Assembly: GCA_013203185.1 (NCBI GenBank)
Contig: JABMOS010000068.1
Span: 19,889 to 83,888, forward strand
Origin: Fidelibacterota bacterium
Lineage (GTDB): Bacteria > Fidelibacterota > UBA8477 > JABMPR01
Reading direction: 5' to 3'
DNA length: 64,000 bases
In this document: one piece after another, positions 6,645 to 43,336 of the stretch
Layout: each line of letters opens with the position of its first letter
How positions within the stretch are numbered: the first letter of the stretch is position 1
Made by a program: the position numbers and the translations under genes
The notes under the pieces: generated by a model
Seen by the model: the letters and a program-made list of their open reading frames with translations, nothing else
Told to the model about the DNA's origin: nothing
Databases searched by the model: none

Positions 6645-6653
6645 CTGAACTCA

Positions 6654-7970: not shown

Positions 7971-8030
7971 ACCATATGATTAACAGGATATTAAACATTA
8001 TAAAATTAAAAGATAAGTAAAGAGGTAATT

Positions 8031-17121: not shown

Positions 17122-18482
17122 CTAGGCAATCCAGATAGATTTGATATTAGTAAACTCGCGGATACCAAAATGTGATAGCTCTCGACCGTAACCAGAACGC
17201 TTGATTTCGCCAAAGGGAAGTCTTGGATCAGAAACGGTCATCCCATTCACAAAGACCGCTCCACTCTCTACTGCACGTGCCAGTTTCTCACCCCTGACTA
17301 TATCATTGGTCCAGAGTGAACCTCCCAGACCAAATTCGGAATCATTGGCTACTGAGCTTGCTTCCTCAGCATCTTTCACTGGGATGATGGCTGACACGGG
17401 ACCGAAGGTTTCCTCGTGGTACAGACTCATTCCAGTTCTCACATCGCTAATCACCGTGGGCTCATAAAAGAAACCTGGTCCAAGAATAGATTTTCCACCC
17501 AGAAGGAGTCGGGCACCTGCATCCAGACTTGCTTTGACTTGTGCATGTAATTCGTCACGGAGATCTCCCCTTGCAAGGGGGCCGACTTGGGACTCTGGGA
17601 GAAGGGGATCACCAACAATAAGGCTCGACATGATCTGTGCTTTTTTGCTTTCAATTTCCTCAAGACGTGATTCAACCACGATAAATCTCTTGGCTGCGAT
17701 ACAGCTTTGCCCGTTGTTTATCATGCGAGCATTAACAGCTGTGGCAACACATTTATCAATATCTGCGTCCTCCAGAACGATATAGGGATCAGATCCACCT
17801 AACTCCAGGACGGTTTTCTTCAGGGCTCGTGCAGCTATGGCAGCTACGTTCATTCCAGCAACTTCACTGCCAGTCAAAGTCACAGCTCGGATATGGGGAT
17901 TCATGATGATTGCTTCAACCTGGCTGGCTGATATCATCAAGGTTCTAAACAGGTTTTCTGGAAATCCTGCCTTGATAAAGATGTTCTCAATGGCCAAGGC
18001 CCAACCAGGAACATTGGATGCATGTTTGAGAACCACGGCGTTCCCCGCCATGAGGGCTGGTGCAGCGAAACGAAATACCTGCCAGAAGGGGAAGTTCCAG
18101 GGCATAACAGCCAGAACAATTCCCAGGGGTTCAAAACTGATGAAGCTCTTTGAAGCGTTTGTTTCCACCATTTCATCAGCAAGAAAAGATTCTGCCTTAT
18201 CTGCTAAAAAAAATCACATACCCAGGCGCACTTCTCAATTTCAGCGCGGGCCTCATGGATAACTTTTCCCATTTCCAGGGTCATGAGGTGGGCTAGATCC
18301 TCTTTTTCTTTTCGTAGCATGAGGGCTGCCTGTTTCATCTTCTTAGCGCGAAGATTAAAATTGGTAGATTTCCAATCCAGCCAGGCTTCCCCGGTGCTTG
18401 TTACAATGCCAATGGCTTCTTCATTTGAATGGCGGGTATAACTCTGAATGAGCAGGCCGGTTGCAGGATTGATTGACTTCAT
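17122..18482 (-). pseudogene. Sad/YneI-type succinate-semialdehyde dehydrogenase, interrupted by a 1-nt frameshift in an A8/T8 run
   Basis: ORFs 18204..18482 and 17122..18171 align end-to-end with the intact paralogue at 51131..52489 (..EKCAWVCDFF | [LADKAESFLADE]MVETNASKSF..). The frames are offset by one base at the homopolymer 18206-18213. One extra A/T would restore FFLADKAESFLADEM. A homopolymer sequencing error cannot be excluded. Confidence 0.8.
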
Positions 18483-21500: not shown

Positions 21501-23146
21501 AAAACAATTCGTGAAAAGTCTGCTATGGGTTTGCTTTTAAAAATCTGATAGGGGATAAGGTCCTCACCAAATCTGTCCCGGGTATAGATAGTAAATGGCT
21601 TCTGGGGTTTGGTCCAGATATTCAACCCACCCAATCTTGCGCCAGCATCAATGCGAAATCCAGTCTCGGTATCCTGCTGGAAGTAGTGAATGGATACAGG
21701 AATTTCGCGCTGTTTGTATTCGTTCTCATAAATGCCTATTTCCCCATCCCAAAGGGTTGGCGGTTCGGCTACCAGGGAAATGGTTGGTAGGAAATGTTGC
21801 TCATTAATGAAGTAGGTCGCTGTCATGATTTCACCAGGCAGAATTCCAGCTTCAAATGCTCGGGCCTTCAAAACTGAGGTAGCATCAATGGAGATACTTC
21901 CAGAGTAGAGTGGGCTTGAGCTGGCAGGTCTTGACCCGTCTAAAGTGTAGTGAATTTGGGACTGGGGGGAAGTGGTTGAGAGTGTGACGCTAATAGATCC
22001 ATTGTGGAAACCGCTGGCTACTGAACTTTCTACTGCTGTGGTTTTAACCGTGCCTGCACTTGAAGGTGTTGAGTTTTCAGTCCCTGGGGTCGGCTCTCCG
22101 AAAAAGGTCCAACCCATGACTCCAGATGGGCGACCGAAGGATACATCTGTTACCTGTTCACCATACGATACATAGTCAACAATACTGGCCTCAGAATAGT
22201 TGATGCCCATGAGCTCAAGATCAAAGCTTATGTCAGAGCTGGTTTCACTTATCTGATGAATTTCTACAGCCAGACAGTTCTCTCCAACTAGAAGCTCGTT
22301 GGCAGGGATGGTGTATTCATAAAATGCATCTTCTTCATCAGAACTTATGGCCGTGCTGGCAAGGGTTTCGAAGGTGATGTCCCCACTGGGCATATTCGTT
22401 CGGATGACCTCATTTCCATTTAAATAAACCACAGCACCATCATCACGCTTGATGTTGGCTACGAGATTACTTAGAGCACTTGGATTGTTTGCCATAAAGG
22501 TTTTACGGAAATAGGTTGTGATATATTTCTGGTTGCTATCACCTCCATAGTCGAGGACAGTGGCTTCATCTCCATCTCCATAACCAAGCTCTGCCTGACC
22601 TTCAGCCCAACTGCCGTCATCATAATTATTCTCAATCCAGGAAGGGTCCAGGTTTGATCCATTGTCCACATACTTCCAGAATGATTCCGTGGGAATGAAA
22701 TTGGTTGTAGCCAGTAGATCCGCCTGAGCCAGAACCACTTCTTCACCGGATTTACTAAGTTTAAAATTCGTGTGGTAGTGGCGTGTAGAATAATCGTCAT
22801 ACGGCCAGGTTTCGCGGGTGTAAATTGAACCTGGTCCATCGTCAAAGTCATCTGCCCAAACCAGCAAATAACCTTGTGCTGGAATAGAGGCACCGCTGGG
22901 AATTCTCCACTTTAAAGGATCATTAAGATTATCGGACAGAAAATATCCATCTAATGATGCAGGAATATCGGAGGTGTTGTGGATTTCTATCCAATCATTG
23001 TAATCCCCAAAATCATACATTTCCGGGAACTCCCTCACATTAGAGGCGAGGAATTCATTAATCTGAAAATCCTGGCCCCAGATGGAGATGCTCAAACTCA
23101 AAGCCAGAATGATACCCAATGGATTATTGAGAGACAGTTTATGCAT
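18506..23146 (-). CDS. giant secreted CotH-domain protein (LTD - CHB_HEX_C-like - CotH - parallel beta-helix - LTD - T9SS/FlgD-Ig C-terminal domain)
   Basis: - Signal peptide after MHKLSLNN (ATG at 23146; the track ORF extends to 23209).
- Lamin-tail-like segments INEFLASN..DWIEIHN and INEFLASN..DWLELYNP.
- IHYTLDGSRP...LKARAF (chitobiase/hexosaminidase C-terminal-type domain).
- CotH core: FRNGGDDWEETLLRD...LFLNGEYWGIYNIREKY.
- PbH1-like repeats: NNRIYNF.., ITSNLIYHS.., ITRNLIVGC..
- C-terminal NYPNPFNPSTTIRYELP...GVYLVRI. Confidence 0.85.
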   Translation of the reverse strand: MHKLSLNNPLGIILALSLSISIWGQDFQINEFLASNVREFPEMYDFGDYNDWIEIHNTSDIPASLDGYFLSDNLNDPLKWRIPSGASIPAQGYLLVWADDFDDGPGSIYTRETWPYDDYSTRHYHTNFKLSKSGEEVVLAQADLLATTNFIPTESFWKYVDNGSNLDPSWIENNYDDGSWAEGQAELGYGDGDEATVLDYGGDSNQKYITTYFRKTFMANNPSALSNLVANIKRDDGAVVYLNGNEVIRTNMPSGDITFETLASTAISSDEEDAFYEYTIPANELLVGENCLAVEIHQISETSSDISFDLELMGINYSEASIVDYVSYGEQVTDVSFGRPSGVMGWTFFGEPTPGTENSTPSSAGTVKTTAVESSVASGFHNGSISVTLSTTSPQSQIHYTLDGSRPASSSPLYSGSISIDATSVLKARAFEAGILPGEIMTATYFINEQHFLPTISLVAEPPTLWDGEIGIYENEYKQREIPVSIHYFQQDTETGFRIDAGARLGGLNIWTKPQKPFTIYTRDRFGEDLIPYQIFKSKPIADFSRIVFRNGGDDWEETLLRDPMTGSLVKGMMDCGYMAYQPSALFLNGEYWGIYNIREKYNTRFFFENFGVDPDNIDHLEYGATQAGTQLLTIEGDQLAYNDFIAFVQNTDLDQDAAYHELSNRMNIDGFIDHVVMTLYCANTSWGHNREWWRPRGGDGKWQWLIVDVDRGFSPSNINTNLLDNLLDGYLLFQYLMGSDRFQNRFLQRAAAHFNNTFMAERIESIVDSLSNTIYDEMPRHIDKWGSLGGISSMTSWEDELNAIKTFAQNRSANLYNHFNNELNLDGTIEMNTATYLAEGGHILINGVPQLSENETGTYFKNQPIQLTAVPAPGYEVIGWNGISDAATITYGCETDTSFIALFQPSSGNILPSQIEENTTLLGNRTYYVSTNLLVPAGLTLTLEAGVDIRMPEQGHIIIDGQLVINGTNAAGVTIASNVDSGGERWGGISFSSESDTSRLDYLSLSGASKGIDPIIHRGAISGNNANLIIDHLDIQDVLFPIYIQGGSIKLLNSSLRCDFISDFINVKRGEVLIDNCRFYGSQAPDTDAIDLDGVESGVVSNNRIYNFDGPNSDGIDLGEGASNILITSNLIYHSSDKGISVGQQSTTTITRNLIVGCTWGVAVKDNSAALLLNNTYVNNEISLVCFEKNVGNGGGEAVERNSIYSNSLISTLFVDAFSSQTVTYSLSDSELLAGAGNLFSQPQFVDPALYNFELAIGSPCTDAGDPGDPEDSDGSPRDIGAYYTYSPDHYPFPIPGRYISFLKINEFLASNSSSNADESGEYDDWLELYNPTDETLDLSKLYLTDNPNNLTKWQFPEGSSIIGPGGFLLIWNDEDGSQGPLHANFKLSASGEFLALVDSNGLSIIDSLTFGVQTSDISWGRVPDGSNNWGMLTPTPGSTNQLLEVLSMPAIPQQFALHQNYPNPFNPSTTIRYELPEQAEVQVLIYDLRGRLIRTLVNASQTAGYKRLIWDGSNNRGEPVSAGVYLVRIVSSEYTKTRKMVLLK

Positions 23147-23331
23147 GATTTTTAATGATGGCGTATTCATAGATAGCATATAGTGTATATCCAAACCGTT
23201 TTCGTACAAGGATTTTAGCAGAAGAGCACTCGGGAAGAAATACCATTACTAAAGATCTTATGAAAACCATAAAATAATAAAAATAAAGAAAATAGGACCA
23301 TAAATGGAGTGATATCCCAGGGTGATTTGAC

Positions 23332-26046
23332 TCACCTCAGATACAGCATTTTGATTGTGTGTTCAAAGCCTTCAGTTGTGAGGCGACAAAAATAGACACC
23401 CGTGCTCACAGTTTGGCCCCCTTTATTTAATCCGGACCAATGGTATTGGTAATGCCCCATACTTTGATACTCATTCATAAGGGTAACGATCTCCTGCCCT
23501 CTAATATCATACACTTTGAGACTGACTTGGGCATCAAATGGAATCACATACGAGATCGTGGTTGTTGGATTAAATGGATTGGGATAATTCTGACGAAGCA
23601 CAAAAGTTTGGGGGTTTTGGTGCGAATTATCTTCTTCAACAGCGCTTGGATCCAGCATCTGAATTTTTACGGCATCTGCTCTCAAGACTGGACCCTGAGT
23701 GGTATTGCCAACATCATGGACTTCCAGATCAATGGGTACATCGGTGGGTAAGAAATAGGTCCCGAGACTAACCCATTGGCCACTATTGGCATTCTGATCC
23801 ATAAAGACAGAATCAATGGGGGCACCGTCAATTTTTAAAAGATACAACGCATTGTCACTTGAGTTGATGGTGGTTGGTACTATGTAACTGATCTCATAGT
23901 AACTTGGCTCTTCAGGCTCTAGACGAAACGAGGCTGAGGCTCCGGAATTCAGCCAGGAGTATCTACTGGACAATCCCCAGGCCTGTGCCACACTTGTAAA
24001 CCATTCCCCAGTTTCGCTGTAGGAATCCGTCTGCTCATTGTCTACCACATAGAATGGGTATTGAACATTTGCAGTAATAACAATATCCAGATCTGGGTGC
24101 ATGGGGTCATCACTGGAAATTCTTAGGGTATCCTCAAGGGGTCCCAAATCAAGAGGATGGAGGGTCAGGGGAATATCAATTTCACCCATGGCTTCTATTT
24201 CCATGGGCAGTGTCAGATCAACATTCACATGCTGGTTTATGCTTTCAATATTTTGAATGGATAAGGTGGAAGTACCTAGATTACTGATCCTCAGATTCTG
24301 AACCGAAGTGCGATCCAGACTGATCTCACCATAATTAATGTTTTGACTGGAGAGATGAATATCTCTCTGGCGAACTCTTGCTGTGAGTTTAATGGCATCT
24401 ACAGTGAGATTTGCACCCATCACAGGTTGGGTGATGTCGCTGAACAATTCTACTACCTGGTTTTGTCCTGCATTCAGAGGAACAGTAGCCAAATAAATCC
24501 ACTCATGGGCGGGTAGGGGAGCCATAAGAGTTACGGTATCAATGCTGGTGTTTGAGTGAATCACAGCTTTGAGAGGAAATGGTGTTGTGTCAGTCGTGGG
24601 AACCTGGATAAAGACGTGATACAGAGAGGCTTCCTGGATATCTGGTGACCATGAGACATGGATAGTATTATTTTCATCCGTTGAGGCGGTGCGGGCATCA
24701 ACTCCCCAGACAGCATTGTCTGTATTTGTCCAAACACCACGTAGCTCGTTATAGCCAATATCTTCATTATCCATATATATATCGTCGGGAATCAGATTGA
24801 CAAATTCCGTGGTGAGGTTTCCAGAAGTATCTGTGGCTGCCACACCCAACTTTGCTAGTTCACCTGGGAAAGGAATGATTTCCGTGGTCCATGTGAGATC
24901 TGATTGCTGGATACACTCAATTTTGCCATAGCTCTCATCCCTGTACTTCACTGCCACATAGGGTTGAGGCATATATAAAGGTTCATTGGAGGATATTTGA
25001 TAGCTCCTGTTGTCCTCTGTCCCTTGACTGGTGACAGTGATCTCAGGAGGTGTTCCGTCAATGGTCCCACGCCAGAGCTGCATGGCCTCAATGGCTGTAC
25101 AGTATCGGAAATCAACATCAGGATATAAGTCGGCTGCGGCATGTGCCAGTTGATTCATCTCGGCCATTTTTTCCGGGAAATCACTTTCGGGCAAGTGTGC
25201 CCAGAGACAGGCAACCTGGTCTGTGCCATTACTGGCAGCTTCAAAGATATTGTTCATAATGCTTGAGCCGGCAACCTGTCCGAAAGAAACAGAGCGGACA
25301 TTCCAGGCAGGCCCATCTCCAGGTACCATGTAATTATCCAGGGAGGGCTGAAATGGTACAAAGGTGGACGGTGATTCAGACCAATTATAAGTATTGTCCA
25401 GGGGTTCTTCTACATCGACATGGTTTGCTGGCCAGGCGTTGTGCATACTATAAGGCAGGATTTCATTGAGATAGTGTTGCCATTCATTATCCATAAAATG
25501 CCAACCACTGCGAAATGAAACGGGGAAGACATCCGCTTCCAAAAGAAATTGAGCCAGGGTTACATCAAAATCATCCCTGGATTCTCCAAAGGTGAGGGAC
25601 TGATTCCAAAAGTACATCCCATCCTGATCATAGTCAGACCAGAAAAAGGTATGATAATGAAGTGATAGTTCATCTCCATTGATGATGACGTTCTCGCCAT
25701 GATATTTCTTCATCAAATACATGGTCATGATATTGGGGACAGGGAAGTTCCGGTTTGTGGCATAGCGGAAGATGTTTCCTGCCATCATCCACCAGGTCAT
25801 TTTCATGGGTTGGCCGTATGAATCCACGAATTGGGCACGGAATGCTGGATCCATGACTTCATATGTATTCATTGATGGATCAGTATAAAGAGCCTGGTTG
25901 TAGGTGTTGTGGTAGCGATTAACAGCCATGCCGTCCCAGATGGCCGTATCTGAGCCCAGGACGAGGTAAACTGTGGCGGATTCAAGTTGGGATACTCCGA
26001 AAATTAAGATCAGGACCAGGTTGAGAATGTGTTTTGATGTTTTCAT
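23332..26046 (-). CDS. secreted 904-aa protein of unknown function with a choice-of-anchor-D/HYDIN-like beta domain and a T9SS/FlgD-Ig C-terminal domain
   Basis: Signal peptide MKTSKHILNLVLILIFGVSQLES. A central segment INYGEISLDRTSVQNLRISNLGTSTLSIQNI is typical of choice-of-anchor D domains. The C-terminus is NYPNPFNPTTTISYVIP...GVYFCRL. The roughly 300-aa N-terminal domain is unrecognised. Confidence 0.7.
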   Translation of the reverse strand: MKTSKHILNLVLILIFGVSQLESATVYLVLGSDTAIWDGMAVNRYHNTYNQALYTDPSMNTYEVMDPAFRAQFVDSYGQPMKMTWWMMAGNIFRYATNRNFPVPNIMTMYLMKKYHGENVIINGDELSLHYHTFFWSDYDQDGMYFWNQSLTFGESRDDFDVTLAQFLLEADVFPVSFRSGWHFMDNEWQHYLNEILPYSMHNAWPANHVDVEEPLDNTYNWSESPSTFVPFQPSLDNYMVPGDGPAWNVRSVSFGQVAGSSIMNNIFEAASNGTDQVACLWAHLPESDFPEKMAEMNQLAHAAADLYPDVDFRYCTAIEAMQLWRGTIDGTPPEITVTSQGTEDNRSYQISSNEPLYMPQPYVAVKYRDESYGKIECIQQSDLTWTTEIIPFPGELAKLGVAATDTSGNLTTEFVNLIPDDIYMDNEDIGYNELRGVWTNTDNAVWGVDARTASTDENNTIHVSWSPDIQEASLYHVFIQVPTTDTTPFPLKAVIHSNTSIDTVTLMAPLPAHEWIYLATVPLNAGQNQVVELFSDITQPVMGANLTVDAIKLTARVRQRDIHLSSQNINYGEISLDRTSVQNLRISNLGTSTLSIQNIESINQHVNVDLTLPMEIEAMGEIDIPLTLHPLDLGPLEDTLRISSDDPMHPDLDIVITANVQYPFYVVDNEQTDSYSETGEWFTSVAQAWGLSSRYSWLNSGASASFRLEPEEPSYYEISYIVPTTINSSDNALYLLKIDGAPIDSVFMDQNANSGQWVSLGTYFLPTDVPIDLEVHDVGNTTQGPVLRADAVKIQMLDPSAVEEDNSHQNPQTFVLRQNYPNPFNPTTTISYVIPFDAQVSLKVYDIRGQEIVTLMNEYQSMGHYQYHWSGLNKGGQTVSTGVYFCRLTTEGFEHTIKMLYLR

Positions 26047-26965: not shown

Positions 26966-27772
26966 TTAAGAAGGGTTTTTGTCTATAGCTCCAGATACCT
27001 TGCGCCGTAGAAATCCCTGGAAGAACGTATTGAGGAAGGGAATCATCCCCAGTTTCTTAGGGATGTAAACAGTACTTTTATCGGCTTCAATAGCGAGAAT
27101 GATTTGATTAACACAGTCCTCAAGGCTTACGGACTCACTGGTATGCTTCTTTGAAGATTTCGAGAGTTTTTTACCGTCAGCTCCAAAAGCATTGTCTCTA
27201 AGATTTGTACCTCTGATCCAGCTCAGGACAGCCTCGAGAATAGAGACTTGTCCTTTCATCTCCATGTCTAGAGTAGATAGGAATCCATGCAGTGCATGTT
27301 TTGATGCGACATAGCCTGAATGGTTGGGGAAACCCATAATAGCTTGAGCAGTTGAACAACTCACAATTTTCCCATTGGTCTTTTTCAGATGGGGAAGGGC
27401 TGACTGGCAACAGTTCACAGCACCATGATAATTGACATCCATCAAAGTCTTAAAAAAAGTAATGTCAGTAATGTCTTCAAACTTAGCCCACATACTGACG
27501 CCGGCATTCAGGATGAGACCATCCACTTTGCCGTATACCTCTACTGCTTGTTTTACCATGTTTTGACAAGCATCCAGGTCAGTGATATCAGTTTGGACAG
27601 CGATTGCAGAACCAGCTGATGCTACAATAGAATCCGTGACTCTTTGGAGTACATCTGCCCGACGAGCGGCACAAACGATCTGAGCACCCTTCTGGGCAAG
27701 CACAACAGCCAGTTGTTCTCCAATACCAGAAGAAGCTCCAGTGATAATGAAGACTTTACCCGCTACGTTCAC
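26966..27772 (-). CDS. classical short-chain dehydrogenase/reductase; candidate acyl/alkyl-DHAP reductase by context
   Basis: SDR motifs TGASSGIG, NAG and S...YVASK are seen. It is the last gene of the AGPS operon, 23 nt after the AGPS stop. The substrate assignment is contextual inference only. Confidence 0.85.
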   Translation of the reverse strand: MNVAGKVFIITGASSGIGEQLAVVLAQKGAQIVCAARRADVLQRVTDSIVASAGSAIAVQTDITDLDACQNMVKQAVEVYGKVDGLILNAGVSMWAKFEDITDITFFKTLMDVNYHGAVNCCQSALPHLKKTNGKIVSCSTAQAIMGFPNHSGYVASKHALHGFLSTLDMEMKGQVSILEAVLSWIRGTNLRDNAFGADGKKLSKSSKKHTSESVSLEDCVNQIILAIEADKSTVYIPKKLGMIPFLNTFFQGFLRRKVSGAIDKNPS

Positions 27773-27795
27773 TTCTGATCCTGCTTATTTAGGGT

Positions 27796-29565
27796 TTAAT
27801 CAGAAAACACATTGTTGGCGACACCAAAAATATTTTTCGGGTCATGGGCCGTTTTCACCTGTTTGAGCATTTCAATACTTGCCGGGGAAATAGTTCCCTT
27901 CATAAAATCTTTCCGTAGTTTTCCAACCCCATGATGATGGGATATAGAACCACCGGCTTCCATGATGGCCTCCCTCATTGCATATTCGATTGAATTAAAA
28001 ATCTCAATGGGATTCTTAACACCTTTGATGCTCATGGCAAACATAAAATAGATACAGACTCCCGTATGATAGATCTGAGGTACACGATATGAGATATAGG
28101 GCTTGCCTGGGATGTTATGCTTTTGGTGAAGTTCTTTAATTTTATTGGTTGCAGCTTCACATACTTCATTCAGTTTGCTCCAGGGAACCGACGTTTCCAT
28201 GGTTTCACCAATTATACGATACCTCGTCATAAAGTCTCTGATGTAGGCGATGGCAAAAGTCAGGTTATAGCCCTTCTTGCCATTTTCAGCGCCGCCAATC
28301 ATACCATTATACTTCTTGGTTAATCTTTTTAAGGTTTTCTGTTGCAAAGCAACTTCATCCTTGGAACCCTCTAATTTGAAGGAGGTTACCACCATTTTGT
28401 AGGGATCGAATTTTTTCACATTCAACACGACGAACTTTTCAAGTTTCTTGATCCAAACCTTCATACCTGTTGCTTTGGGATTCAATGCTTGACCAAAACG
28501 GAACTGGGCATTATCCATGAGACGTGCACTGGCAGGTACGGCACCACTCTTCGATAATTCATACATAAAGGCTACACCGGTCTCCCAGTCGTGAAACAGG
28601 GCAGAATTATAATCGGATGATTCTGGGAGTGTATGCACTTTCAAAGTGGCTTTGGTGATGATTCCAAAATTACCTTCAGATCCTAAAAGCATATTCTGCG
28701 TACTCACGCCAATAGAAGCACGTGTAATTGGATCGACCTGCTCCACAACCCCATTGGGAGTGATCATGGTTACGTTTTCAACAATGTCTTCAATATTTCC
28801 GTAGCGATTTTTTTTCATCCCACTGGCATTGGTTGAAATCCAACCTCCTAGGGTAGATAGTTCGATACTGTCTGGTTCATGTCCAACCGTGAGACCTTTG
28901 ACTTGTAGGAGCTCTTCCAGTTTGCTGCCGAGGATACCGGCCTGGACAACTACGCGACGGTTTTCCAGATCAATGGATTCGATTTGATTCATTCGTCGAG
29001 TGTCTACTGCGACAACCATCCTCTTTTCAAATTGAGGGATTTGCAGGGCGTTGCTAACACTTGTCCCACCTCCATATGGGATGAGGCAAATATCATGTTC
29101 AATGGCCAGGTCAATCAATTTTTGAGTTTCGTCTTCTGACTCGATGTAGAAGACCATGTCAGCTACTTTATCGACTTTATCGAAAACAACCTTATATATT
29201 TCATCGGTGGTTTGGCCAGCGCTATGCATAAGTCGCTCTGAATCACCAAAGGTATAACGGTCCTCGGGAAACGTGGCTTTAACTGCGTCTGCGAAAGCTT
29301 GGTTGATTTGGGCTTTCTCTACAGGTTTGTCGTCTACTTCAGGCAATACGTCATCTACATCAACGGTCATATCCAACATCTCTTCAACATAAGGGATAAA
29401 ATCCGGCATATCGAAGCCACAAAGATCATAGCGATCTCCGGTCATGCTTACGGTCCGGTCGCTATTCAGTATGAATTCTGAATCTTTATAACCCCATTTA
29501 TGTCCCCAGTTGTCATCGTTTACGGCATAAAATTTTTCTTTGTTGGGAGGTGTACTATTTTTCAT
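27796..29565 (-). CDS. alkyldihydroxyacetonephosphate synthase (AGPS)-like FAD-linked oxidase
   Basis: 589 aa. The N-terminal WGHKWGYKDSEFILNSDRTVSMTGDRYDL parallels the animal AGPS N-terminus (..WNGWGY.DS.F..). It has a VAO/PCMH FAD-binding core. The C-terminal GGSISHHHGVGKLRKDFM...DPKNIFG reproduces the AGPS HHH active-site motif. Confidence 0.85.
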   Translation of the reverse strand: MKNSTPPNKEKFYAVNDDNWGHKWGYKDSEFILNSDRTVSMTGDRYDLCGFDMPDFIPYVEEMLDMTVDVDDVLPEVDDKPVEKAQINQAFADAVKATFPEDRYTFGDSERLMHSAGQTTDEIYKVVFDKVDKVADMVFYIESEDETQKLIDLAIEHDICLIPYGGGTSVSNALQIPQFEKRMVVAVDTRRMNQIESIDLENRRVVVQAGILGSKLEELLQVKGLTVGHEPDSIELSTLGGWISTNASGMKKNRYGNIEDIVENVTMITPNGVVEQVDPITRASIGVSTQNMLLGSEGNFGIITKATLKVHTLPESSDYNSALFHDWETGVAFMYELSKSGAVPASARLMDNAQFRFGQALNPKATGMKVWIKKLEKFVVLNVKKFDPYKMVVTSFKLEGSKDEVALQQKTLKRLTKKYNGMIGGAENGKKGYNLTFAIAYIRDFMTRYRIIGETMETSVPWSKLNEVCEAATNKIKELHQKHNIPGKPYISYRVPQIYHTGVCIYFMFAMSIKGVKNPIEIFNSIEYAMREAIMEAGGSISHHHGVGKLRKDFMKGTISPASIEMLKQVKTAHDPKNIFGVANNVFSD

Positions 29566-30286
29566 AAAGTTCCGTTGCCTTTTTGGTAATGGCTAGTTCC
29601 AGCGCTGATATCATTTTTTTTGAAGCTTCTTTTAAATCATTCTCGCTAGGAGTATCAGATTTAAGAAATTTTTCTGGATAAATTGGTTCAAGAATATAGA
29701 CCTTAATACCTGTGGGACGCATTAAAAATTTTCCACGAGGCCATGCTTTATGGGACCCATAAATAACAGCAGGTAATATTGGAGCTCCCAGATCCAGAGA
29801 AAATCTGGCTGCACCCTTCTTAAATGGCAATATTTTGCCTGGATTGCCTCGTGTTCCTTCAGGAAAAAATATGAGGCTCCTCTGTTGGTAGCTCATGAAC
29901 GTTTCGCACAATTTGATAGTATCTTTGATTGGGAATTGTCCTTCTCCTTTGACCCTTCTGTCAATGGGAATCAGGTTCATGACTGTATTTATCAGGGTCC
30001 GTCTGGTCCAACTATCAAACCAATAGTCCTTGGCCGCCATCATTCCAAAATGATTGAAGCTTTTCTGTGCCGCGGCCGAAAGAAGTGCAACATCCATATG
30101 GCTGTTGTGATTGCTGCAAAAAATAAAGGATGAATCAGGAATGTTTTCACGACCATAAACTTTCAGGGGCGTGTAAAATGTAAAGACTAACTTACTGTAA
30201 TAGTAAAATAAGATTTTCCAGATTTTATAGTAAAACGCCTGTTTCCCCAGCAAGTAGGAGAATTTTGGATTGTCAAGAACATCCAT
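29555..30286 (-). CDS. PlsC/GNPAT-type glycerolipid acyltransferase (LPLAT superfamily)
   Basis: HX4D motif (CSNHNSHMD), FFPEGTRG motif, and an N-terminal hydrophobic anchor. It overlaps the AGPS start by 11 nt and lies 8 nt downstream of the HMGR-like gene. Confidence 0.85.
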   Translation of the reverse strand: MDVLDNPKFSYLLGKQAFYYKIWKILFYYYSKLVFTFYTPLKVYGRENIPDSSFIFCSNHNSHMDVALLSAAAQKSFNHFGMMAAKDYWFDSWTRRTLINTVMNLIPIDRRVKGEGQFPIKDTIKLCETFMSYQQRSLIFFPEGTRGNPGKILPFKKGAARFSLDLGAPILPAVIYGSHKAWPRGKFLMRPTGIKVYILEPIYPEKFLKSDTPSENDLKEASKKMISALELAITKKATELYEK

Positions 30287-30294
30287 GTGTGACT

Positions 30295-31455
30295 CTATTT
30301 TCTACCATATTTCATATGTGCATCTGTCCAGGTATGGGAGCCAATGGCACAAATGAGCGAGATTTCAAGAGATAGGGTCGCGGCGGCAATAATTTCTGCT
30401 AGTTTCCTGGATGAATGCTCACCTTCTGCGCATCCCAGCAATTCCAGATTTCGCTGCTGCATTTTCAATCGTGTTCCACCTCCGACAGTACCGACAGTGA
30501 GTGAGGGGAGTGTCATCTTGAACTTGATACCTTCCTCAGTCTTCTCCAGTCCCAGATGAGCAATGCTGTTTTCAGCAGCACAAGCTGTGTCCTGACCTGT
30601 GGCCAGATAGATCGCTGTGAGAGCGTTTGAAACATGCAAGCCATTCCCATGGGTTCCAGCTAAGCTCGATATGGTTGGGAAAAAACTCCAGGAATCGAAC
30701 AAGATATCGGGATCCATTTTTAGAATTCTTCGCATGACACTATACTTAATGGTGGTTTCAGCTGAGACTGCATGACCGCGACCCAGAAGCATATTTCGGG
30801 TGGAAGCTTTTTTATCACTGTTGAAGTTGGACTCCAGGAAGTAATTCTGGCCAGTCTCTTTTTGAATGTATTCACAGGCAACCTGAGCTGCCAGAGTAAC
30901 CATGTTTTGTCCAGCTGCGTTGTTGGTGTCCAACACCAAATCCAGCACAACATAATTTTGGATTGTATATTGATCAATTCTCAGGACTTTTCCATGTTTG
31001 GTGGTGCTTTCTGCCACCGCCATGATTTTGTCCTGGTTCTCTGTAACCCATTGTTGGAACTTGACACTTTCCAGAATATCATCAAGAATAAATACGGGTG
31101 CCCGAGATAACTCCTGCCTGAAATGGCGTACGGTGGTTCCACCGCTTACCGTGGAGGCATAAATGCCGCGATTCATGGAGGCTGCCAGTGACCCTTCAAG
31201 TGTACACAGGGGAATGACAAAGTCACCGTTTGCATAGGTGCCGTTGATGCTCAGTGGACCAACTACAGCCATGGGTATGTTCATGGTTCCTACATGGTGC
31301 TCGATGATTCCTTTTAAATCCTCAACGTCATCAGTAAGCGTGTCGTCGATTTCAACACCTGTGAACTCCTTGACCCATTCTTTGCGAGCTATTGAATCTT
31401 CCATGCTGTATCCACGTGGAAGATGCGAGCCGAGCCCGTTTTTTTCTTCAGACAT
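30295..31455 (-). CDS. HMG-CoA reductase family (class I-like, short form) NAD(P)H-dependent thioester reductase; substrate uncertain
   Basis: The 386-aa product aligns by eye with the class I HMGR catalytic core: IPMAVVGPL..VIPLCTLEGSLAASMNRG, SNFNSDKKAS (cf. SGNYCTDKKPA), NALTAIYLATGQD, GTVGGGT and the C-terminal ..DAHMKYGR. It diverges at otherwise invariant motifs (EHHVG versus ENVIG; NAAGQNM versus DAMGMNM). It is the first gene of the AGPS operon. Confidence 0.8.
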   Translation of the reverse strand: MSEEKNGLGSHLPRGYSMEDSIARKEWVKEFTGVEIDDTLTDDVEDLKGIIEHHVGTMNIPMAVVGPLSINGTYANGDFVIPLCTLEGSLAASMNRGIYASTVSGGTTVRHFRQELSRAPVFILDDILESVKFQQWVTENQDKIMAVAESTTKHGKVLRIDQYTIQNYVVLDLVLDTNNAAGQNMVTLAAQVACEYIQKETGQNYFLESNFNSDKKASTRNMLLGRGHAVSAETTIKYSVMRRILKMDPDILFDSWSFFPTISSLAGTHGNGLHVSNALTAIYLATGQDTACAAENSIAHLGLEKTEEGIKFKMTLPSLTVGTVGGGTRLKMQQRNLELLGCAEGEHSSRKLAEIIAAATLSLEISLICAIGSHTWTDAHMKYGRK

Positions 31456-31775
31456 ATATCACCCCATATAAATGAAAGTTGTAATTTTTAATTTGTCCCG
31501 ATTCTTTATGTATATAATAATAATCATGATAATATCAATCACCAAATGTCTCAGATATATGGACTCAACAATCCATTTTATCACACACAATATCAATGCT
31601 TTGGTGGAGGTTATTTCTACAAGTTACTCCCGCCTTAAACCAACCAAAGTCCTTTTTAGGGTGAAAGTAGGGAATCTCCCGTTCCAGAAATAGGGCTCCC
31701 CTCATGAGAGAAAGGTCTGGTGACTCTATATTCATGTCACGTTTTTCACCAACACCTTACTGAGGAGAGATAAAA

Positions 31776-32171
31776 ATGGAAATCCAATTGCCCCCAAAGA
31801 AAAAAACTTTATTGTTCGTTGAAGATGACCCAGGCTGGAGGTTGATAATAAGCTACATGGTCAAAAATATGGACATCGAAGCTCTCTACGCAGAGTCAGG
31901 TGAAGATGCATTGCGGATTATCAAAGACCGGAAGGATGTTGAGATTATGTTTCTAGATGTATCTCTGGGGAATGGCATCTCAGGTATGGATCTGGCTGAA
32001 CAAATCAAATCCAATCAATGCTATAAGAATATTCCCATGATTGCCATGACTGCTTATGAAAAACAGAGTATTGAGGGTTATCAAGAGAATGGCTTCACCG
32101 GGTATCTCCAAAAGCCCTATTCTGCAGCGCAATTTGGAGCCGTTATTGATGGAAACAACCATCTGAACTAA
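31776..32171 (+). CDS. single-domain response regulator (receiver only)
   Basis: 131 aa with LLFVEDDPG, FLDVSLG (phospho-acceptor Asp), MIAMTAY and LQKPY. GGAGAG lies upstream of the ATG, and a terminator follows. Confidence 0.8.
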   Translation: MEIQLPPKKKTLLFVEDDPGWRLIISYMVKNMDIEALYAESGEDALRIIKDRKDVEIMFLDVSLGNGISGMDLAEQIKSNQCYKNIPMIAMTAYEKQSIEGYQENGFTGYLQKPYSAAQFGAVIDGNNHLN

Positions 32172-32238: not shown

Positions 32239-32398
32239 GTTCAGATTATTATCATCTTTCGATTGGTTGGGATAATCTTGTAAATATTGAAACCTTTGAT
32301 TCAGCTATGTCCAGACTAGATTTCATGAGCGAAATCATCACTAATTTGACGTTAAATGAGTGAAACTGCTTCATTAAAAATTGACTGAAAAGGTATAT

Positions 32399-35134
32399 AT
32401 GTTAAATAAAATAATTTCTATCCTCCTCCTGGGACTCAGCACCTTATTCGCATCCACACCTGCTAAACCAGGTGTGATTCCATCTGAAGTGTTGATAGAG
32501 CAGATCGCAATCATGTCTGAAACATACGGGCAAGGTGGTCTAGCTGCCAAAATGCAAGGTATTAGGGCAGCGAATATCCAGCATGCAGAAAATGGGACCC
32601 GTGATTTGAGAGAAGATATCTATATGAGTTTTCCCGTCATCATGGGCTCATATTCTGATTATGATGATGCGACAAATGTTATCAATCTGCTTCAATCAGA
32701 ATTATTTGATGGGCCCTGGCCGAGCGTCACCATGGCAGAACATTATGAGGAAATGTCACTTGGTCAATTTCACCTTTCTGGGACAGTATATGGTTGGTAT
32801 GAGTTAGGTGAGACTGGCCAGCATTATGGTGGTACGGATAATGGTTTCGATGGGGGTGTCGGTGATTTTCTGCATGAGTCACTTGACCTTTCTGATATAG
32901 AGATAGATTTTAGAGAATATGACAATGATGGTCCTGATGGAGTACCAAATTCTGGTGATGATGATGGGGTTGTTGATGCTGCCTTTTTTGTACATTCCGG
33001 CCCAGATGGCGCGGCTGGAGGTCCTTACATCTGGTCTCATCGATGGTCCTATTCTGCAGCTTCTGGTACTGGGTCTGCCTACACGACCAATGATACTGGA
33101 GCAAACGGAAGTCCTATAACTGTTGATGATTACATTATGCAACCTGCAGAAGGCTCTAATGGTGGATTGATAGAGATCGCTGTTTTCTCACACGAATTTG
33201 GCCATGCTATTGGCCTTCCAGATCTGTATGATACCGATTATTCTTCAGATGGCATAGGCAGATGGTGCCTTATGGCTGGCGGCACTAACCTCCTACCCAA
33301 TAGTAGTCCGCCACATATGTCGGTTTGGTGCAAGGAAATGTTGGGCTGGGTTATTCCTGTGGTTCTAGATGCCAATATTGACAGCATTTCAATTCCGCCC
33401 ATTGTTCCAACCGGTTTCGCTCTCAAGGTATGGAAGGACGGGGAAGTTGATCCCTGGGAATCTGGATATGGCCAGGGACTTGAGGTAGGTCGTGAATATT
33501 TCCTTATAGAAAATCGGCAACATATAGGCACTGACCAACATCTGGTGGGCACCGGATTGATAATCTATCATGTAGACAACACCCAATGGGGCAATTCGGA
33601 TGACGAGCATCGATTGGTCGACATTGAACCTGCCAATGGTCAAGAGGGCGGAACAAACCCTGGACAGACCTGGTCTGCAACTTCTGAGAATCAATTGTTT
33701 GATTTCCAAACCATTCCCTCTTCAGCATCCTATGCATTTGAGAATACTGAGGTGGCCATATTTAATTTTGTTGAAAATGATTCAAGCATTATCGCTTCTG
33801 TGGAGGTCAATGAGGCTTTTCCCCACCTTGGTCTCGTTGATTTTATCCTTGCTGACGCCAATGATGATGGCTTTCTCTCACCGGGTGAGAGTGGGCAGCT
33901 TAGCCTGACGCTGATCAATTATGGTCTCCTGGCTACAGATGTTTCTGCCACCATCATTGAAGATAATTCGGCTTTTAATTTTACCACTGCAGCCATTGGT
34001 TTTGAGAACATTCTATCTGGTACTGCGGAGGTCTCAACGGCCCCTTTTGAGTTCACCATGGCCTCCGATTTTGAGTCTGGCACTAGCACGCTGCGATTCC
34101 AGGTGAATAATTCCACCTCTGATATCATTGATACCCTCTCATTTGATTTGATAATTGGTGATCCACAAGTTGCAGTAGTGGATGCTGATGGCGCCGTTTC
34201 AGGGGATATGGATGTTCAGGACTATTACACCCAGGCTCTGATTGATAATGATATTGTTTATACTATCTGGGATGTAGCCCTTGATGGGTTGCCCACAGAG
34301 GAGTGGTTGTTAGGCAGACCCAATGTTATTTACTTCACCGGAAGTGCTGGCTTGCCCTTAACTGTGCCTGTGATCAATCTCTTGTCAAGCTACCAGGATG
34401 GCGGCGGCAGGCTCTTGCTCACGGGTCAGGACCTTACAGATGGCGATGAAGTTCAAGCCGCCTTTTTAAATGAATATTGTGCAGTTGATTTTGTAGAGGA
34501 GCAAACCGTAAACCCACGGTATTTATTCGGAAATCCTGATCATGGAATCATGACTGCAGCTGATCAGTATCGAATCAACACCATTTATGGTGCCAATAAT
34601 CAAACCAGTCCTGATGTTGTTGAACGTTTATCCCATGGGACCAAATTGTTTCAATATCCACGACTGGATGATCAGGCTGCTGGTGTCACCACCATTCAAA
34701 ATGGCTATAAAACTATCTTCCTCGCATTTGGATTTGAGGCCATTGCTGGTCTAGAGGATGAGGGCCCTGAGGTACGAGCAGATCTCATTCAAAGATTCCT
34801 GGAATGGTTTAAGCTGGATTATGTGGGTATCGATTCAGAGAACATTCTAAAGGATATGACACCAGGTATCAGCCACTTCTATCCCAATCCTTTTAATCCT
34901 ACTGTCAATATTGGATATGTGCTGCCTGAACGGGTTGAGTTAACCCTTACCGTCTACGATATTGCAGGCAGGGAGGTTACTCAGCTGTTAAGTGGTGATC
35001 AATCGGCTGGGAGCCATGAAATTCAATGGAATGGTGTGGATGCTTCAGGTCTTTCTGTGAGTACAGGCGTGTACTTCTGCCGTTTGGAAGTAGGGGAGAT
35101 AAGTCATACCATCAAAATGGTCTATCTCAAGTAA
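32399..35134 (+). CDS. secreted M6 (immune inhibitor A-like) zinc metalloprotease with T9SS/FlgD-Ig C-terminal domain
   Basis: Signal peptide MLNKIISILLLGLSTLFAS (ATG 32399; the track ORF starts at TTG 32381). Zinc motif HEFGHAIGLPDLYD, as in M6 peptidases. C-terminus FYPNPFNPTVNIGYVLP...GVYFCRL. Confidence 0.8.
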   Translation: MLNKIISILLLGLSTLFASTPAKPGVIPSEVLIEQIAIMSETYGQGGLAAKMQGIRAANIQHAENGTRDLREDIYMSFPVIMGSYSDYDDATNVINLLQSELFDGPWPSVTMAEHYEEMSLGQFHLSGTVYGWYELGETGQHYGGTDNGFDGGVGDFLHESLDLSDIEIDFREYDNDGPDGVPNSGDDDGVVDAAFFVHSGPDGAAGGPYIWSHRWSYSAASGTGSAYTTNDTGANGSPITVDDYIMQPAEGSNGGLIEIAVFSHEFGHAIGLPDLYDTDYSSDGIGRWCLMAGGTNLLPNSSPPHMSVWCKEMLGWVIPVVLDANIDSISIPPIVPTGFALKVWKDGEVDPWESGYGQGLEVGREYFLIENRQHIGTDQHLVGTGLIIYHVDNTQWGNSDDEHRLVDIEPANGQEGGTNPGQTWSATSENQLFDFQTIPSSASYAFENTEVAIFNFVENDSSIIASVEVNEAFPHLGLVDFILADANDDGFLSPGESGQLSLTLINYGLLATDVSATIIEDNSAFNFTTAAIGFENILSGTAEVSTAPFEFTMASDFESGTSTLRFQVNNSTSDIIDTLSFDLIIGDPQVAVVDADGAVSGDMDVQDYYTQALIDNDIVYTIWDVALDGLPTEEWLLGRPNVIYFTGSAGLPLTVPVINLLSSYQDGGGRLLLTGQDLTDGDEVQAAFLNEYCAVDFVEEQTVNPRYLFGNPDHGIMTAADQYRINTIYGANNQTSPDVVERLSHGTKLFQYPRLDDQAAGVTTIQNGYKTIFLAFGFEAIAGLEDEGPEVRADLIQRFLEWFKLDYVGIDSENILKDMTPGISHFYPNPFNPTVNIGYVLPERVELTLTVYDIAGREVTQLLSGDQSAGSHEIQWNGVDASGLSVSTGVYFCRLEVGEISHTIKMVYLK

Positions 35135-38105: not shown

Positions 38106-38801
38106 ATGACAACAACCGAAATCACTAAGAGCAAAAATCTGAGGACCAAGAGCGGTCCTGAATTCAGGATCATGGACTGTGCCCTCATCGCACTGGCAAC
38201 TGGCAAGCGAGCCAGGACTTTAAAGAATCTTCGAGATTATCTGGAAACTATTGAGCCGCAGAGCATCTATTATCATTTCTGGGGGAGTCTTCTGCGTCCT
38301 CGTTTCGAGGATGCTGAGTATCATAATGATTTTGCCGGTTGGGCGGCTCATTCACTCCATGACACCATGACGGCTGAGCGCCTGGGTATAGTAAATCCCC
38401 TGGCATTTCAGACTATGGAAGAATTGCGACAGGAACTCATGGACATTATTGATGAACGCATCGATGAGTTAGAAGTTCTACCTGCTTCTTCCAAGGATAG
38501 TCAGTTTGAATTTATCAGTTCAGACATGGTTGTATTCAGGTCAGATACAGTAATTAGGACAGCAGCCGAACTGTTGAAGGTCATACCCACGCTATCTCTG
38601 GGTAGCATCTTCTACCACTTCATTGATGCACGCCGGCGAACTGAGGTGTCCCATGACGATTTTAGCACCTGGCTCCAGCAATATGAATGTGCAGAAGCCG
38701 TTCAGGGGCTTGCCGAAATTGACCCATTCTTTACCTCTCTCAGCGCTTTGCGCCAGGAGATCACCGAAATACTAACTAAACACTTATCTGGAGACTTATG
38801 A
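38106..38801 (+). CDS. conserved-looking protein of unknown function with an internal two-fold repeat
   Basis: 231 aa. Two related segments are present: SIYYHFWGSLLRPRFEDAEYHNDFAGWAAHSL and SIFYHFIDARRRTEVSHDDFSTWLQQY. Its stop overlaps the start of the TreT-like gene (ATGA). Confidence 0.6.
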   Translation: MTTTEITKSKNLRTKSGPEFRIMDCALIALATGKRARTLKNLRDYLETIEPQSIYYHFWGSLLRPRFEDAEYHNDFAGWAAHSLHDTMTAERLGIVNPLAFQTMEELRQELMDIIDERIDELEVLPASSKDSQFEFISSDMVVFRSDTVIRTAAELLKVIPTLSLGSIFYHFIDARRRTEVSHDDFSTWLQQYECAEAVQGLAEIDPFFTSLSALRQEITEILTKHLSGDL

Positions 38802-40042: not shown

Positions 40043-40056
40043 CAGAAGGATAAGCC

Positions 40057-42398: not shown

Positions 42399-42425
42399 AG
42401 TCTAAATTTTATTAAGGAGCAACAT

Positions 42426-43172: not shown

Positions 43173-43336
43173 CGAAGATTTCGCCCAATCTGGATTAGCT
43201 CGTGAACCTCATTTACTTCGTTACAGATGGGAATCATGACCAGGGTGAGTATGGATTGATTCGCCTGGCAAGAAGTCGGGGTGGTCACCGGAGTGGAATG
43301 TCGAGGTGGTGGCAAAGAGAATAACCTCAGGACTGC

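Follow-up and report, generated by a model that had tools for sequence, protein, structure and literature searches.

The question raised by this locus is whether the product of a gene resembling HMG-CoA reductase (HMGR) makes mevalonate or reduces another acyl-CoA. The gene (30295..31455, minus strand, ATG start) encodes a protein of 386 aa with a class I HMGR fold and lies in a window of 64 kb from a bacterium of the Marinimicrobia (SAR406), which is the whole stretch of DNA that was analysed. Its orthologues are named hydroxymethylglutaryl-CoA reductase (NADPH) by NCBI and JGI. A first-pass annotation of the same DNA had proposed a paralogue with intact HMGR chemistry and a remodelled pocket for another, probably long-chain, acyl-CoA, and this reading is supported by the protein sequence, which carries the signatures of the FcrA family.

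FcrA is an HMGR-derived fatty acyl-CoA reductase described by Grossi et al. 2025 (PMC11948995). The characterised enzyme of Ca. Promineifilum breve (Pb-FcrA) uses NADPH to reduce acyl-CoA of C14 and longer, is inactive on HMG-CoA, is insensitive to simvastatin and does not act on free C16:1 aldehyde (PMC11948995). Wax-ester synthesis, in haloarchaea and Ca. Promineifilum, is the one physiological role that has been demonstrated for FcrA; a role in ether lipids was raised as speculation only, and dual roles were suggested to be possible (PMC11948995). Judged by its residues, the protein encoded at 30295..31455 belongs to this family, which was already published in 2025. New here is the genomic context, an operon with an acyltransferase, an alkyl-DHAP synthase (AGPS) and an SDR, and not the FcrA family itself. 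The protein is likely to be an FcrA-type long-chain acyl-CoA reductase heading a complete four-gene operon for alkyl-DHAP ether lipids.

Relation of the protein to HMG-CoA reductase

The open reading frame is real, and every motif string quoted in the first-pass annotation was found in its translation: EHHVG (aa 52–56), PLCTLEGSLAAS (aa 82–93), NAAGQNM (aa 179–185), SNFNSDKKAS (aa 209–218), NALTAIYLATGQD (aa 277–289), GTVGGGT (aa 322–328) and DAHMKYGR (aa 378–385). The protein consists of the core domain alone and carries neither a Lad nor an ACP extension. It spans the full Pfam profile HMG-CoA_red (PF00368, E 4.9e-98) and matches the archaeal class I HMGR 6hr7 in the PDB (E 4.5e-74), so that at the sequence level its similarity to HMGR is far above chance. 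Its score against the NCBIfam HMGR equivalog TIGR00533 was 272.3 bits, under the cutoff of 441.8. The AlphaFold model (pLDDT 82.6) superimposes on archaeal and human HMGR with a TM of about 0.80 (Foldseek: 0.80 to 6hr7/6hr8), this being a monomer model of a fold whose HMGR-type active site sits at the subunit interface.

Catalytic residues and pocket residues

Residue equivalences were taken from HMMER and MAFFT alignments, with verified human HMGR numbering. The catalytic set is aligned throughout, all codons lying on the minus strand: Glu87 corresponds to E559 (31195..31197), Lys215 to K691 (30811..30813), Asp289 to D767 (30589..30591) and His380 to H866 (30316..30318). N277 corresponds to human N755 in the computed alignment, and R590, K692 and H752 of the human enzyme are retained along with N755. 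The earlier claim that the catalytic Glu, Lys, Asp and His are kept together with the Asn was thus borne out.

According to the published work, FcrA is discriminated from HMGR by substitutions of S684 (Glu in N. pharaonis FcrA), of the Lys that binds the HMG carboxylate, which is generally replaced by a small residue, and of L862, which becomes bulky (PMC11948995). This Lys is printed as 'Lys795' in PMC11948995 and was taken as Lys735, as inferred from the spacing K691+44 and from the aligned residues. In the 386-aa protein all three positions are changed (codons again on the minus strand). The HMG-binding Ser684 position is occupied by Glu208 (30832..30834) in both alignments, seven residues N-terminal of the catalytic Lys, which is the spacing of human S684. 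Phe258-Phe259 (30679..30684) lies where Lys735 would form the salt bridge to the HMG carboxylate, the equivalent residue being F259 by HMMER and F258 by MAFFT; either way the Lys is lost, and Phe is bulkier than the small residues described for FcrA. Trp376 (30328..30330), a bulky aromatic residue, replaces Leu862 in the C-terminal flap helix, which comprises residues 375–383 in the AlphaFold model, and stands four residues before His380.

The same pattern is found in the close homologues, which without exception (118/118) have E or D at 684, no Lys at 735 and W or F at 862; Glu at 684 occurs in 46 of the 47 members of the operon-linked FcrA subclade described below. Canonical HMGRs (n=15) have S/K/L at 684/735/862 in 14 cases and S/R/L in one. 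The spacings of the 386-aa protein are those of N. pharaonis FcrA (K to D 74, D to H 91, Glu at K-7, Trp at H-4), K to D being 76 in human HMGR. The residue numbering of N. pharaonis FcrA was matched by none of the 224 sequences in the tree.

Two of the motif comparisons made earlier held only in part. In the S..DKK cis-loop, the assignment of Lys215 to K691 stands, but the Ser is not conserved, as Glu208 occupies S684 by both HMMER and MAFFT; the pairing of S209 with S684 requires a shift of one residue and is therefore a misalignment. Among the motifs listed as divergent, A655 and Q657 of the DAMG(M/Q)N motif are indeed found throughout FcrA, but D653N, which lies within the same motif, is not one of the three published pocket positions. 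It has become fixed in no group but the Marinimicrobia subclade, residue 653 being E or N in the operon-linked subclade, to which C556, L/V558, H530 and a bulky F/Y/L at 735 are specific. The decisive changes, K735 to Phe and L862 to Trp376, were absent from that list.

Phylogenetic position

A neighbour-joining tree of 224 sequences was evaluated by unrooted bipartitions with bootstrap. The canonical HMGRs, including the human, Arabidopsis and M. thermolithotrophicus enzymes, were split off with 94% bootstrap, and the 386-aa protein was left out of this group; in the alignment and phylogeny check suggested earlier, it thus does not nest with canonical HMGRs. The first-pass annotation had named nesting among bona fide HMGRs with the same motif variants as evidence against its reading; since all three published FcrA pocket signatures are present and the protein lies outside the canonical clade, this is not what was found. 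The FcrA proteins linked to the operon form a subclade of their own with 100% bootstrap. Membership of one clade with the characterised Pb-FcrA and Np-FcrA is suggested by the signature residues and by Lad-type proxies from Chloroflexi, which stood in for them in the tree; Pb-FcrA belongs to another, Lad-domain subclade, which is about 40% identical to the 386-aa protein. Classing by overall identity was uninformative, as the protein is 39% identical to archaeal HMGR and 39–42% identical to Lad-type FcrA.

The four-gene operon

The fcrA-type gene is the first of a tight operon on the minus strand, in the order fcrA, acyltransferase, AGPS and SDR. Eight nucleotides separate fcrA from the acyltransferase gene, the latter overlaps the AGPS gene by 11 nt, and 23 nt lie between AGPS and SDR. 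The acyltransferase (29555..30286, 243 aa) is of the PlsC type (Pfam PF01553, 1e-22), with the motifs HX4D (HNSHMD, aa 60) and FPEGTR (aa 141), and its only PDB match is 5kym, a 1-acyl-sn-glycerol-3-phosphate acyltransferase (4.2e-17). It is proposed to be a DHAP acyltransferase, an analogue of GNPAT, though from its sequence it could alternatively act on 1-alkyl-G3P as an sn-2 acyltransferase. The AGPS (27796..29565, 589 aa) matches mammalian AGPS (PDB 4bby) with E 2.6e-138 over residues 22–584. Its active site is kept in SHHHGVGKLR (the HHH loop), ARLMDN (Arg) and CIYFMF (Tyr), which correspond to H615-617, R419 and Y578 in guinea-pig numbering counted from the 4bby alignment. The last gene encodes a classical SDR (26966..27772, 268 aa; Pfam adh_short 8.5e-45) with the motifs TGASSGIG and YVASK (catalytic Tyr/Lys), which is the proposed alkyl-DHAP ketoreductase. 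It scores 237 bits against NCBIfam NF004825 (cutoff 215), a model without a functional name, and resembles the NCBIfam model PRK07201 (E 3.6e-38), which was used to detect AcrB-type reductases (PMC11948995).

Upstream of the operon, a region of 320 bp (31456..31775) is shared with a divergent response-regulator gene and is presumed to hold the promoter. It gave weak sigma-70-like matches only, promoter and terminator scans were uninformative, and no Rfam elements were found in it at E<=1. Domains of the mevalonate pathway, the MEP pathway or wax synthase (WS/DGAT) were not found among the open reading frames of at least 200 aa in the window, and the four-gene block contains no other FAR-type gene.

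Conservation of the gene block

The order fcrA-acyltransferase-AGPS(-SDR) was found in 32 of the 34 loci of the 100%-bootstrap subclade and was absent from all 33 loci not belonging to it (Fisher p 4e-17); no Lad-type or other FcrA locus showed this linkage to AGPS. Records of the operon-linked subclade bear about ten phylum-level labels. In a varied set of 26 operon loci, these four families alone are recurrent, the SDR being kept in 19, and any other neighbour occurs in at most three. Neither extra conserved partners (acyl-CoA ligase, desaturase or phosphatase) nor WS/DGAT were found among the conserved neighbours at these 26 loci. In P. breve, an AGPS gene nine genes downstream serves as a fingerprint; it was absent at three Lad-type loci (L085–L087), which were used as controls. 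To date, the near one-to-one linkage of FcrA and AGPS in fixed order constitutes the strongest evidence from genomes for a role in ether lipids. The literature searched, on HMGR or FcrA with AGPS operons and on mevalonate or ether lipids in Marinimicrobia, yielded nothing more than the ether-lipid speculation of the FcrA paper and a count of Agps homologues in Marinisomatota MAGs.

Proposed pathway and alternative explanations

The model starts from the observed fold, residues, clade, operon structure and conservation; it predicts the substrate, product and cofactor of the first enzyme, along with a particular role for the acyltransferase and for the SDR. By analogy with HMGR, FcrA would convert a long-chain acyl-CoA to the free fatty alcohol at the cost of two NADPH, the hemithioacetal and aldehyde intermediates staying bound. 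Stabilisation of the oxyanion would fall to Lys215 and Asp289, and Glu87 would serve as the acid; the leaving CoA thiolate would receive its proton from His380, which lies on the C-terminal helix that closes. With the fatty alcohol supplied by FcrA in the first step and 1-acyl-DHAP by the PlsC-type acyltransferase in the second, AGPS would swap the acyl group for the alcohol to give 1-O-alkyl-DHAP. Finally, the SDR would reduce the ketone to 1-O-alkyl-sn-glycerol-3-phosphate, from which alkyl-acyl phospholipids derive. FcrA would thereby take the place of the Rossmann-type FAR of animals and Myxococcus. A fatty alcohol is the required substrate of AGPS, and known AGPS enzymes take long-chain fatty alcohols; as the block holds no other FAR-type gene, this was counted in favour of FcrA as the source of the alcohol.

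A divergent but genuine class I HMGR, making mevalonate for isoprenoids as publicly annotated, is highly improbable. The protein strongly resembles HMGR by its Pfam and PDB matches, retains the catalytic residues and R590, K692, H752 and N755, and is as close in identity to archaeal HMGR (39%) as to Lad-type FcrA, which together with the NCBI/JGI names would fit such an enzyme. However, Lys735, which is Arg in one of the 15 sampled canonical HMGRs and otherwise invariant among them, is replaced by Phe, S684 by Glu and L862 by Trp; the score of 272 bits falls short of the equivalog cutoff of 441.8, and the position outside the canonical clade has 94% bootstrap. Likewise, the conserved AGPS operon and the lack of mevalonate genes among the open reading frames of at least 200 aa in the 64 kb argue against mevalonate synthesis, and Pb-FcrA, a protein with the same signature, is inactive on HMG-CoA (PMC11948995). 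It is also quite improbable that the alcohol serves mainly for wax esters or as free alcohol, with supply of AGPS secondary or absent: although this is the only role demonstrated for FcrA and dual roles were suggested to be possible (PMC11948995), WS/DGAT is found neither in window reading frames of at least 200 aa nor among the conserved neighbours, and the subclade is about one-to-one with AGPS in fixed order across phyla, as other FcrA loci never are.

The protein might instead belong to an ether-lipid operon but act on another substrate, such as acyl-ACP or the thioester of a short, branched or hydroxy acyl group, or stop at the aldehyde and leave the SDR to finish, which is unlikely. The pocket changes of the subclade (C556, L/V558, H530 and the bulky F/Y/L at 735) would agree with another substrate, whereas the long-chain fatty alcohols used by known AGPS enzymes speak against it. 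Of the modelled FcrA pockets, 12 of 59 were too small for C14 (PMC11948995), which also points to other substrates. As for the aldehyde, the resemblance of the SDR to the AcrB-type detection model PRK07201 would suit a division of labour; on the other hand, the inactivity of Pb-FcrA on free C16:1 aldehyde fits an HMGR-like bound aldehyde (PMC11948995), and an alkyl-DHAP ketoreductase is still required, for which the SDR is the sole candidate in the block. A complete alkyl-DHAP operon headed by a long-chain acyl-CoA reductase is thus the preferred reading.

Beyond this locus, the chances are about even that a domain-free FcrA subclade has displaced the Rossmann FAR within a four-gene module that is self-contained and moves horizontally, and by which Marinimicrobia/SAR406 and members of about nine other phylum-level groups make 1-O-alkyl ether lipids in an animal-like way that does not depend on oxygen.

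Implications

The HMGR label on the orthologues would wrongly imply that SAR406 and many other bacteria have a mevalonate pathway, and residues 684, 735 and 862 suffice to correct the annotation. The compact four-gene unit is directly testable in a heterologous host. Marinimicrobia/SAR406 are abundant, uncultured bacteria of the dark and deep ocean, and non-isoprenoid alkylglycerol lipids serve as environmental biomarkers; if the proposal is true, SAR406 would be a candidate marine source of non-isoprenoid alkylglycerol ether lipids. Bacterial AGPS lineages near the mammalian and Dictyostelium enzymes would then also bear on the origin of eukaryotic AGPS.

Comparison with known systems

With canonical class I HMGR (human 1DQ8/1DQA; Methanothermococcus thermolithotrophicus 6HR7) the 386-aa protein shares the fold (TM about 0.80), the catalytic residues, GTVGGGT, the His-bearing C-terminal flap helix and probably the two-step NADPH mechanism. 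It differs in the replacement of S684, K735 and L862, in a score under the equivalog cutoff, in its clade and in having no mevalonate-pathway context in the 64-kb window. With FcrA it has in common the class I fold, the E/K/D/H set, Glu684, the loss of Lys735, Trp862, A655/Q657 and the Np-FcrA spacings. It shares, however, only some 40% identity with the Lad-type group and lacks the N-terminal Lad (PF25653) or ACP domain. Unlike Pb- and Np-FcrA, its subclade is linked with an AGPS operon instead of WS/DGAT, and it has Phe at 735; the operon-linked set stands apart as a subclade with 100% support and with C556, L558, H530 and E/N653 of its own.

Among ether-lipid systems, the myxobacterial elb cluster with the multidomain ElbD (FadD-ACP-FAR-PlsC) likewise pairs the reduction of an acyl group with a PlsC-like acyltransferase in the synthesis of alkyl ether lipids, but the reductase fold of ElbD is unrelated, ElbD is a single multidomain protein and the cluster is without AGPS. 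In the Myxococcus xanthus operon MXAN_1676-1674, AGPS is accompanied by a fused FAR-GNPAT (PMC13012113), whereas the acyltransferase in the window is small, stand-alone and of the PlsC type. The four predicted reactions are the same as in the aerobic alkyl-DHAP pathway known from animals (FAR1, GNPAT, AGPS and alkyl-DHAP reductase). In the comparison with the animal and Myxococcus pathways, the AGPS is clearly orthologous (E 2.6e-138 against the mammalian AGPS), and its gene is accompanied by those of an acyltransferase and a reductase that depends on NAD(P). The fatty-alcohol step, in contrast, would be carried out by an HMGR-fold enzyme and not by a Rossmann FAR, which from the sequences would be a clear non-orthologous displacement in a pathway otherwise common to animals.

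Identity of the HMGR-like protein

The minus-strand ORF at 30295..31455 encodes a protein of 386 aa that matches the Pfam HMG-CoA_red profile over its full length (E 4.9e-98). Among solved structures, the closest match is a class I HMGR from Methanothermococcus thermolithotrophicus (6hr7, E 4.5e-74), and the AlphaFold2 model (pLDDT 82.6, pTM 0.84) aligns with both archaeal and human HMGR at a TM of ~0.80. All motifs quoted in the first-pass annotation were found in the protein, and the catalytic set is intact in a MAFFT alignment in which the human numbering was checked residue by residue (E87, K215, D289 and H380, corresponding to E559, K691, D767 and H866; also N277 and R118, corresponding to N755 and R590). 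Given the motifs, the domain and fold match and the intact catalytic set, that observation is real. Its pairing of S209 with human S684 was wrong, as HMMER and MAFFT agree on Glu208 at this position, seven residues before the catalytic Lys, the same offset as for human S684.

An assignment as canonical HMGR was rejected, because the protein's score for the NCBIfam class I HMGR equivalog is 272 bits, below the cutoff of 441.8, and three residues of the HMG pocket are replaced according to HMMER and MAFFT (S684 by Glu208, K735 by Phe (F258/F259) and L862 by Trp376). Grossi et al. 2025 (PMC11948995) defined FcrA as a fatty acyl-CoA reductase derived from class I HMGR. The purified enzyme of Ca. 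Promineifilum breve oxidised NADPH with acyl-CoA of C14 and longer, reduced neither HMG-CoA nor free C16:1 aldehyde, and was not inhibited by simvastatin (PMC11948995). The discriminating positions in that paper are the same three that are changed in the window protein, with the catalytic tetrad kept; the printed 'Lys795' is read here as Lys735, since the spacing is K691+44 and N. pharaonis G411 lies at K367+44. The spacings of 74 from K to D and of 91 from D to H are common to the window protein and N. pharaonis FcrA, whereas K to D is 76 in human HMGR. Judged by its sequence, the window protein has each testable defining feature of FcrA and fails those of canonical HMGR. The earlier proposal of a paralogue with a different acyl-CoA substrate therefore appears correct by pocket residues and clade, but is a rediscovery, as the FcrA family was already published in 2025.

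Family-wide residues and phylogeny

The pocket positions were followed in 120 close relatives (65-93% identical; the named ones are labelled Marinimicrobia) and in the 150 top-ranking representatives of 50%-identity clusters, obtained by exhaustive search. Each of the 118 close relatives of full length carries Glu/Asp at 684 and Trp/Phe at 862, none has Lys at 735, and the canonical Ser/Lys/Leu triad was found in just 10 of 143 cluster representatives. In a neighbour-joining tree (224 sequences, 373 columns, 100 bootstraps; the two FcrA sequences of P. breve and N. pharaonis not among them), human, Arabidopsis and Methanothermococcus HMGRs grouped with the other Ser/Lys/Leu sequences at 94% support, and the window protein fell outside. 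Percent identity alone is not decisive for classification (39% to archaeal HMGR versus 39-42% to Lad-type FcrA). NCBI and JGI name the close relatives HMG-CoA reductase, which flags a widespread misannotation of FcrA-type proteins.

The motifs that had been listed as divergent proved to be a mixture of layers. A655 and Q657 of NAAGQNM are FcrA-wide, while C556 and L558 of PLCTL, H530 of EHHVG and E/N at 653 are specific to the operon-linked subclade. N653 itself is present throughout the Marinimicrobia subclade (19/19) but occurs as well in 7/28 other operon-clade members and 7/162 other FcrA-like proteins. It belongs to the nucleotide-binding DAMG(M/Q)N motif and is not one of the three pocket positions given in the FcrA paper.

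Operon structure and conservation

Beyond the first-pass finding, the new element is the operon context: fcrA is the first gene of a compact minus-strand operon (26966-31455). After an 8-nt gap follows a PlsC-type acyltransferase (243 aa, PF01553, HNSHMD and FPEGTR motifs), whose gene overlaps by 11 nt with that of a 589-aa protein (27796-29565, minus strand). The latter matches mammalian AGPS (4bby, E 2.6e-138 over residues 22-584), has the active-site HHH loop, Arg and Tyr, and is by these sequence features unmistakably an alkyl-DHAP synthase. A classical SDR (268 aa) follows after 23 nt and matches an NCBIfam family that carries no assigned function. No mevalonate, MEP or wax-synthase domain was found in any window ORF of at least 200 aa. 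A stand-alone response-regulator receiver protein (31776-32171, plus strand) is divergent from the operon; its gene is not conserved beside the operon in other genomes, so that a regulatory link is doubtful.

Eighty fcrA loci (90% to 36% identity) were obtained from species-representative genomes, and partners were searched by tblastn with the three partner proteins and placed on the neighbour-joining tree. Every locus with partners sits in one FcrA subclade (100% bootstrap), with record titles of Marinimicrobia, Planctomycetota, Spirochaetota, Bacteroidota, Caldithrix, Ignavibacteria, Verrucomicrobiota, Gemmatimonadales, Porifericomitaceae and Pseudomonadota. Where 3 kb or more of downstream sequence was available for an in-clade locus, AGPS was found in conserved order and on the same strand in 32/34 cases, versus 0/33 out-of-clade loci (Fisher p 4e-17); among the latter are three Lad-type Chloroflexi chromosomes, in which fcrA lies behind purine-biosynthesis genes. 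When neighbours of 26 diverse operon loci were clustered, only the four operon families recurred (in 25, 25, 20 and 19 loci), any other family being present in three loci or fewer. Hence the four-gene block itself is the conserved unit, and evidently a mobile one.

Six loci in or near the operon-linked subclade (L025, L035, L038, L045, L046 and L081; Planctomycetaceae, Kuenenia) have no AGPS block adjoining fcrA, and three of these (L045, L046 and L081) match FcrA over just a part of its length; the partners may lie elsewhere in the genome, or the genes may be decaying. Two MAG labels look wrong, probably from mis-binning or mislabelling: 'uncultured Lentisphaeria' (L006), with an FcrA 87% identical to that of the window and a full Marinimicrobia-type operon, and 'Akkermansia muciniphila' (L031), which has an environmental-type operon.

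Two AGPS types occur within otherwise identical fcrA operons, as in the window (27796-29565, minus strand) and in locus L024 (7451-9028). The window/Marinimicrobia type is nearest to mammalian AGPS (2.6e-138, versus 6.3e-74 for Dictyostelium 2uuu), the Planctomycetes type to Dictyostelium (1e-133, versus 1.5e-90 for mammalian). By tblastn, identities to the window AGPS fall into classes of 55-83%, 44-48% and ~30%. The two types may be relevant to where eukaryotic AGPS came from, a question that a 2026 PNAS paper could not settle because phylogenetic signal was lacking.

Proposed ether lipid pathway

In the AGPS reaction, a long-chain fatty alcohol takes the place of the acyl chain in 1-acyl-DHAP. 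In the window operon, FcrA is the sole reductase predicted to be capable of four-electron thioester-to-alcohol reduction. Animals and Myxococcus xanthus obtain the alcohol through a Rossmann-type FAR and acyl-DHAP through GNPAT, and these two enzymes are fused in MXAN_1675 of M. xanthus (PMC13012113). In the operon, FcrA would provide the fatty alcohol, the PlsC-type acyltransferase would presumably form acyl-DHAP, AGPS would convert these to 1-O-alkyl-DHAP, and the SDR is the likely candidate for reduction to 1-O-alkyl-sn-glycerol-3-phosphate. Alternatively, the acyltransferase could act later, in sn-2 acylation of alkyl-G3P. The four-step FcrA-acyltransferase-AGPS-SDR model is the best-supported one; it builds on the observed fold, residues, clade and operon linkage, and its substrate, cofactor and individual acyltransferase and SDR roles are predictions. 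The operon evidence adds a well-supported and directly testable predicted role in bacterial ether lipid synthesis.

Other genes in the window

Three very large proteins encoded around the operon are secreted ones, each with a C-terminal sorting tail for type IX secretion: a CotH kinase/lamin-tail/beta-helix protein (1567 aa, 18506-23209, minus strand), a Golvesin_C protein (904 aa, 23332-26046, minus strand) and an M6 immune-inhibitor-A-type peptidase (917 aa, 32381-35134, plus strand). An aldehyde dehydrogenase gene (17122-18482, minus strand) is split over two frames into an N-terminal piece of 92 aa (18204..18482) and a second piece of 349 aa (17122..18171, Pfam Aldedh positions 116-461); the break near 18171-18204 reflects either a frameshift, pseudogenisation or a sequencing error. 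On the plus strand, 38106-45308 looks like a compatible-solute/osmotic-stress cluster (DUF5752, TreT-like GT1 glycosyltransferase, trehalose-phosphatase-like and GT20 (OtsA-like) genes, PRC-barrel protein, MscS-type channel and GNAT acetyltransferase). Three adjacent plus-strand genes at 5301-9551 (AlaDh/PNT-N domain protein, saccharopine dehydrogenase, aldehyde dehydrogenase) suggest a saccharopine-type lysine catabolic route.

Comparison with characterised FcrAs

It was already speculated that some FcrAs supply ether lipid synthesis, citing AGPS nine genes from fcrA in P. breve and a PlsC-like gene adjoining fcrA in Coxiella (PMC11948995). A Black Sea survey reported Agps homologues in 49/134 Marinisomatota MAGs. 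In a literature search of incomplete coverage, no paper was found that describes fcrA and AGPS in a tight operon or the subclade dedicated to it.

The Lad N-terminal domain of the characterised group is Pfam family PF25653 (HMG-CoA_red_N). Lad-type fcrA is also present at locus L048, and on three Chloroflexi-type chromosomes (L085-L087, gene 10001-11548) it directly follows a run of purine-biosynthesis genes in conserved synteny. Characterised FcrAs carry a Lad or ACP extension, whereas the window FcrA has neither and sits in a distinct subclade that has pocket residues of its own. Position 735 is Phe in the window FcrA and a small residue in characterised FcrAs, and the gene is linked to AGPS instead of wax synthase.
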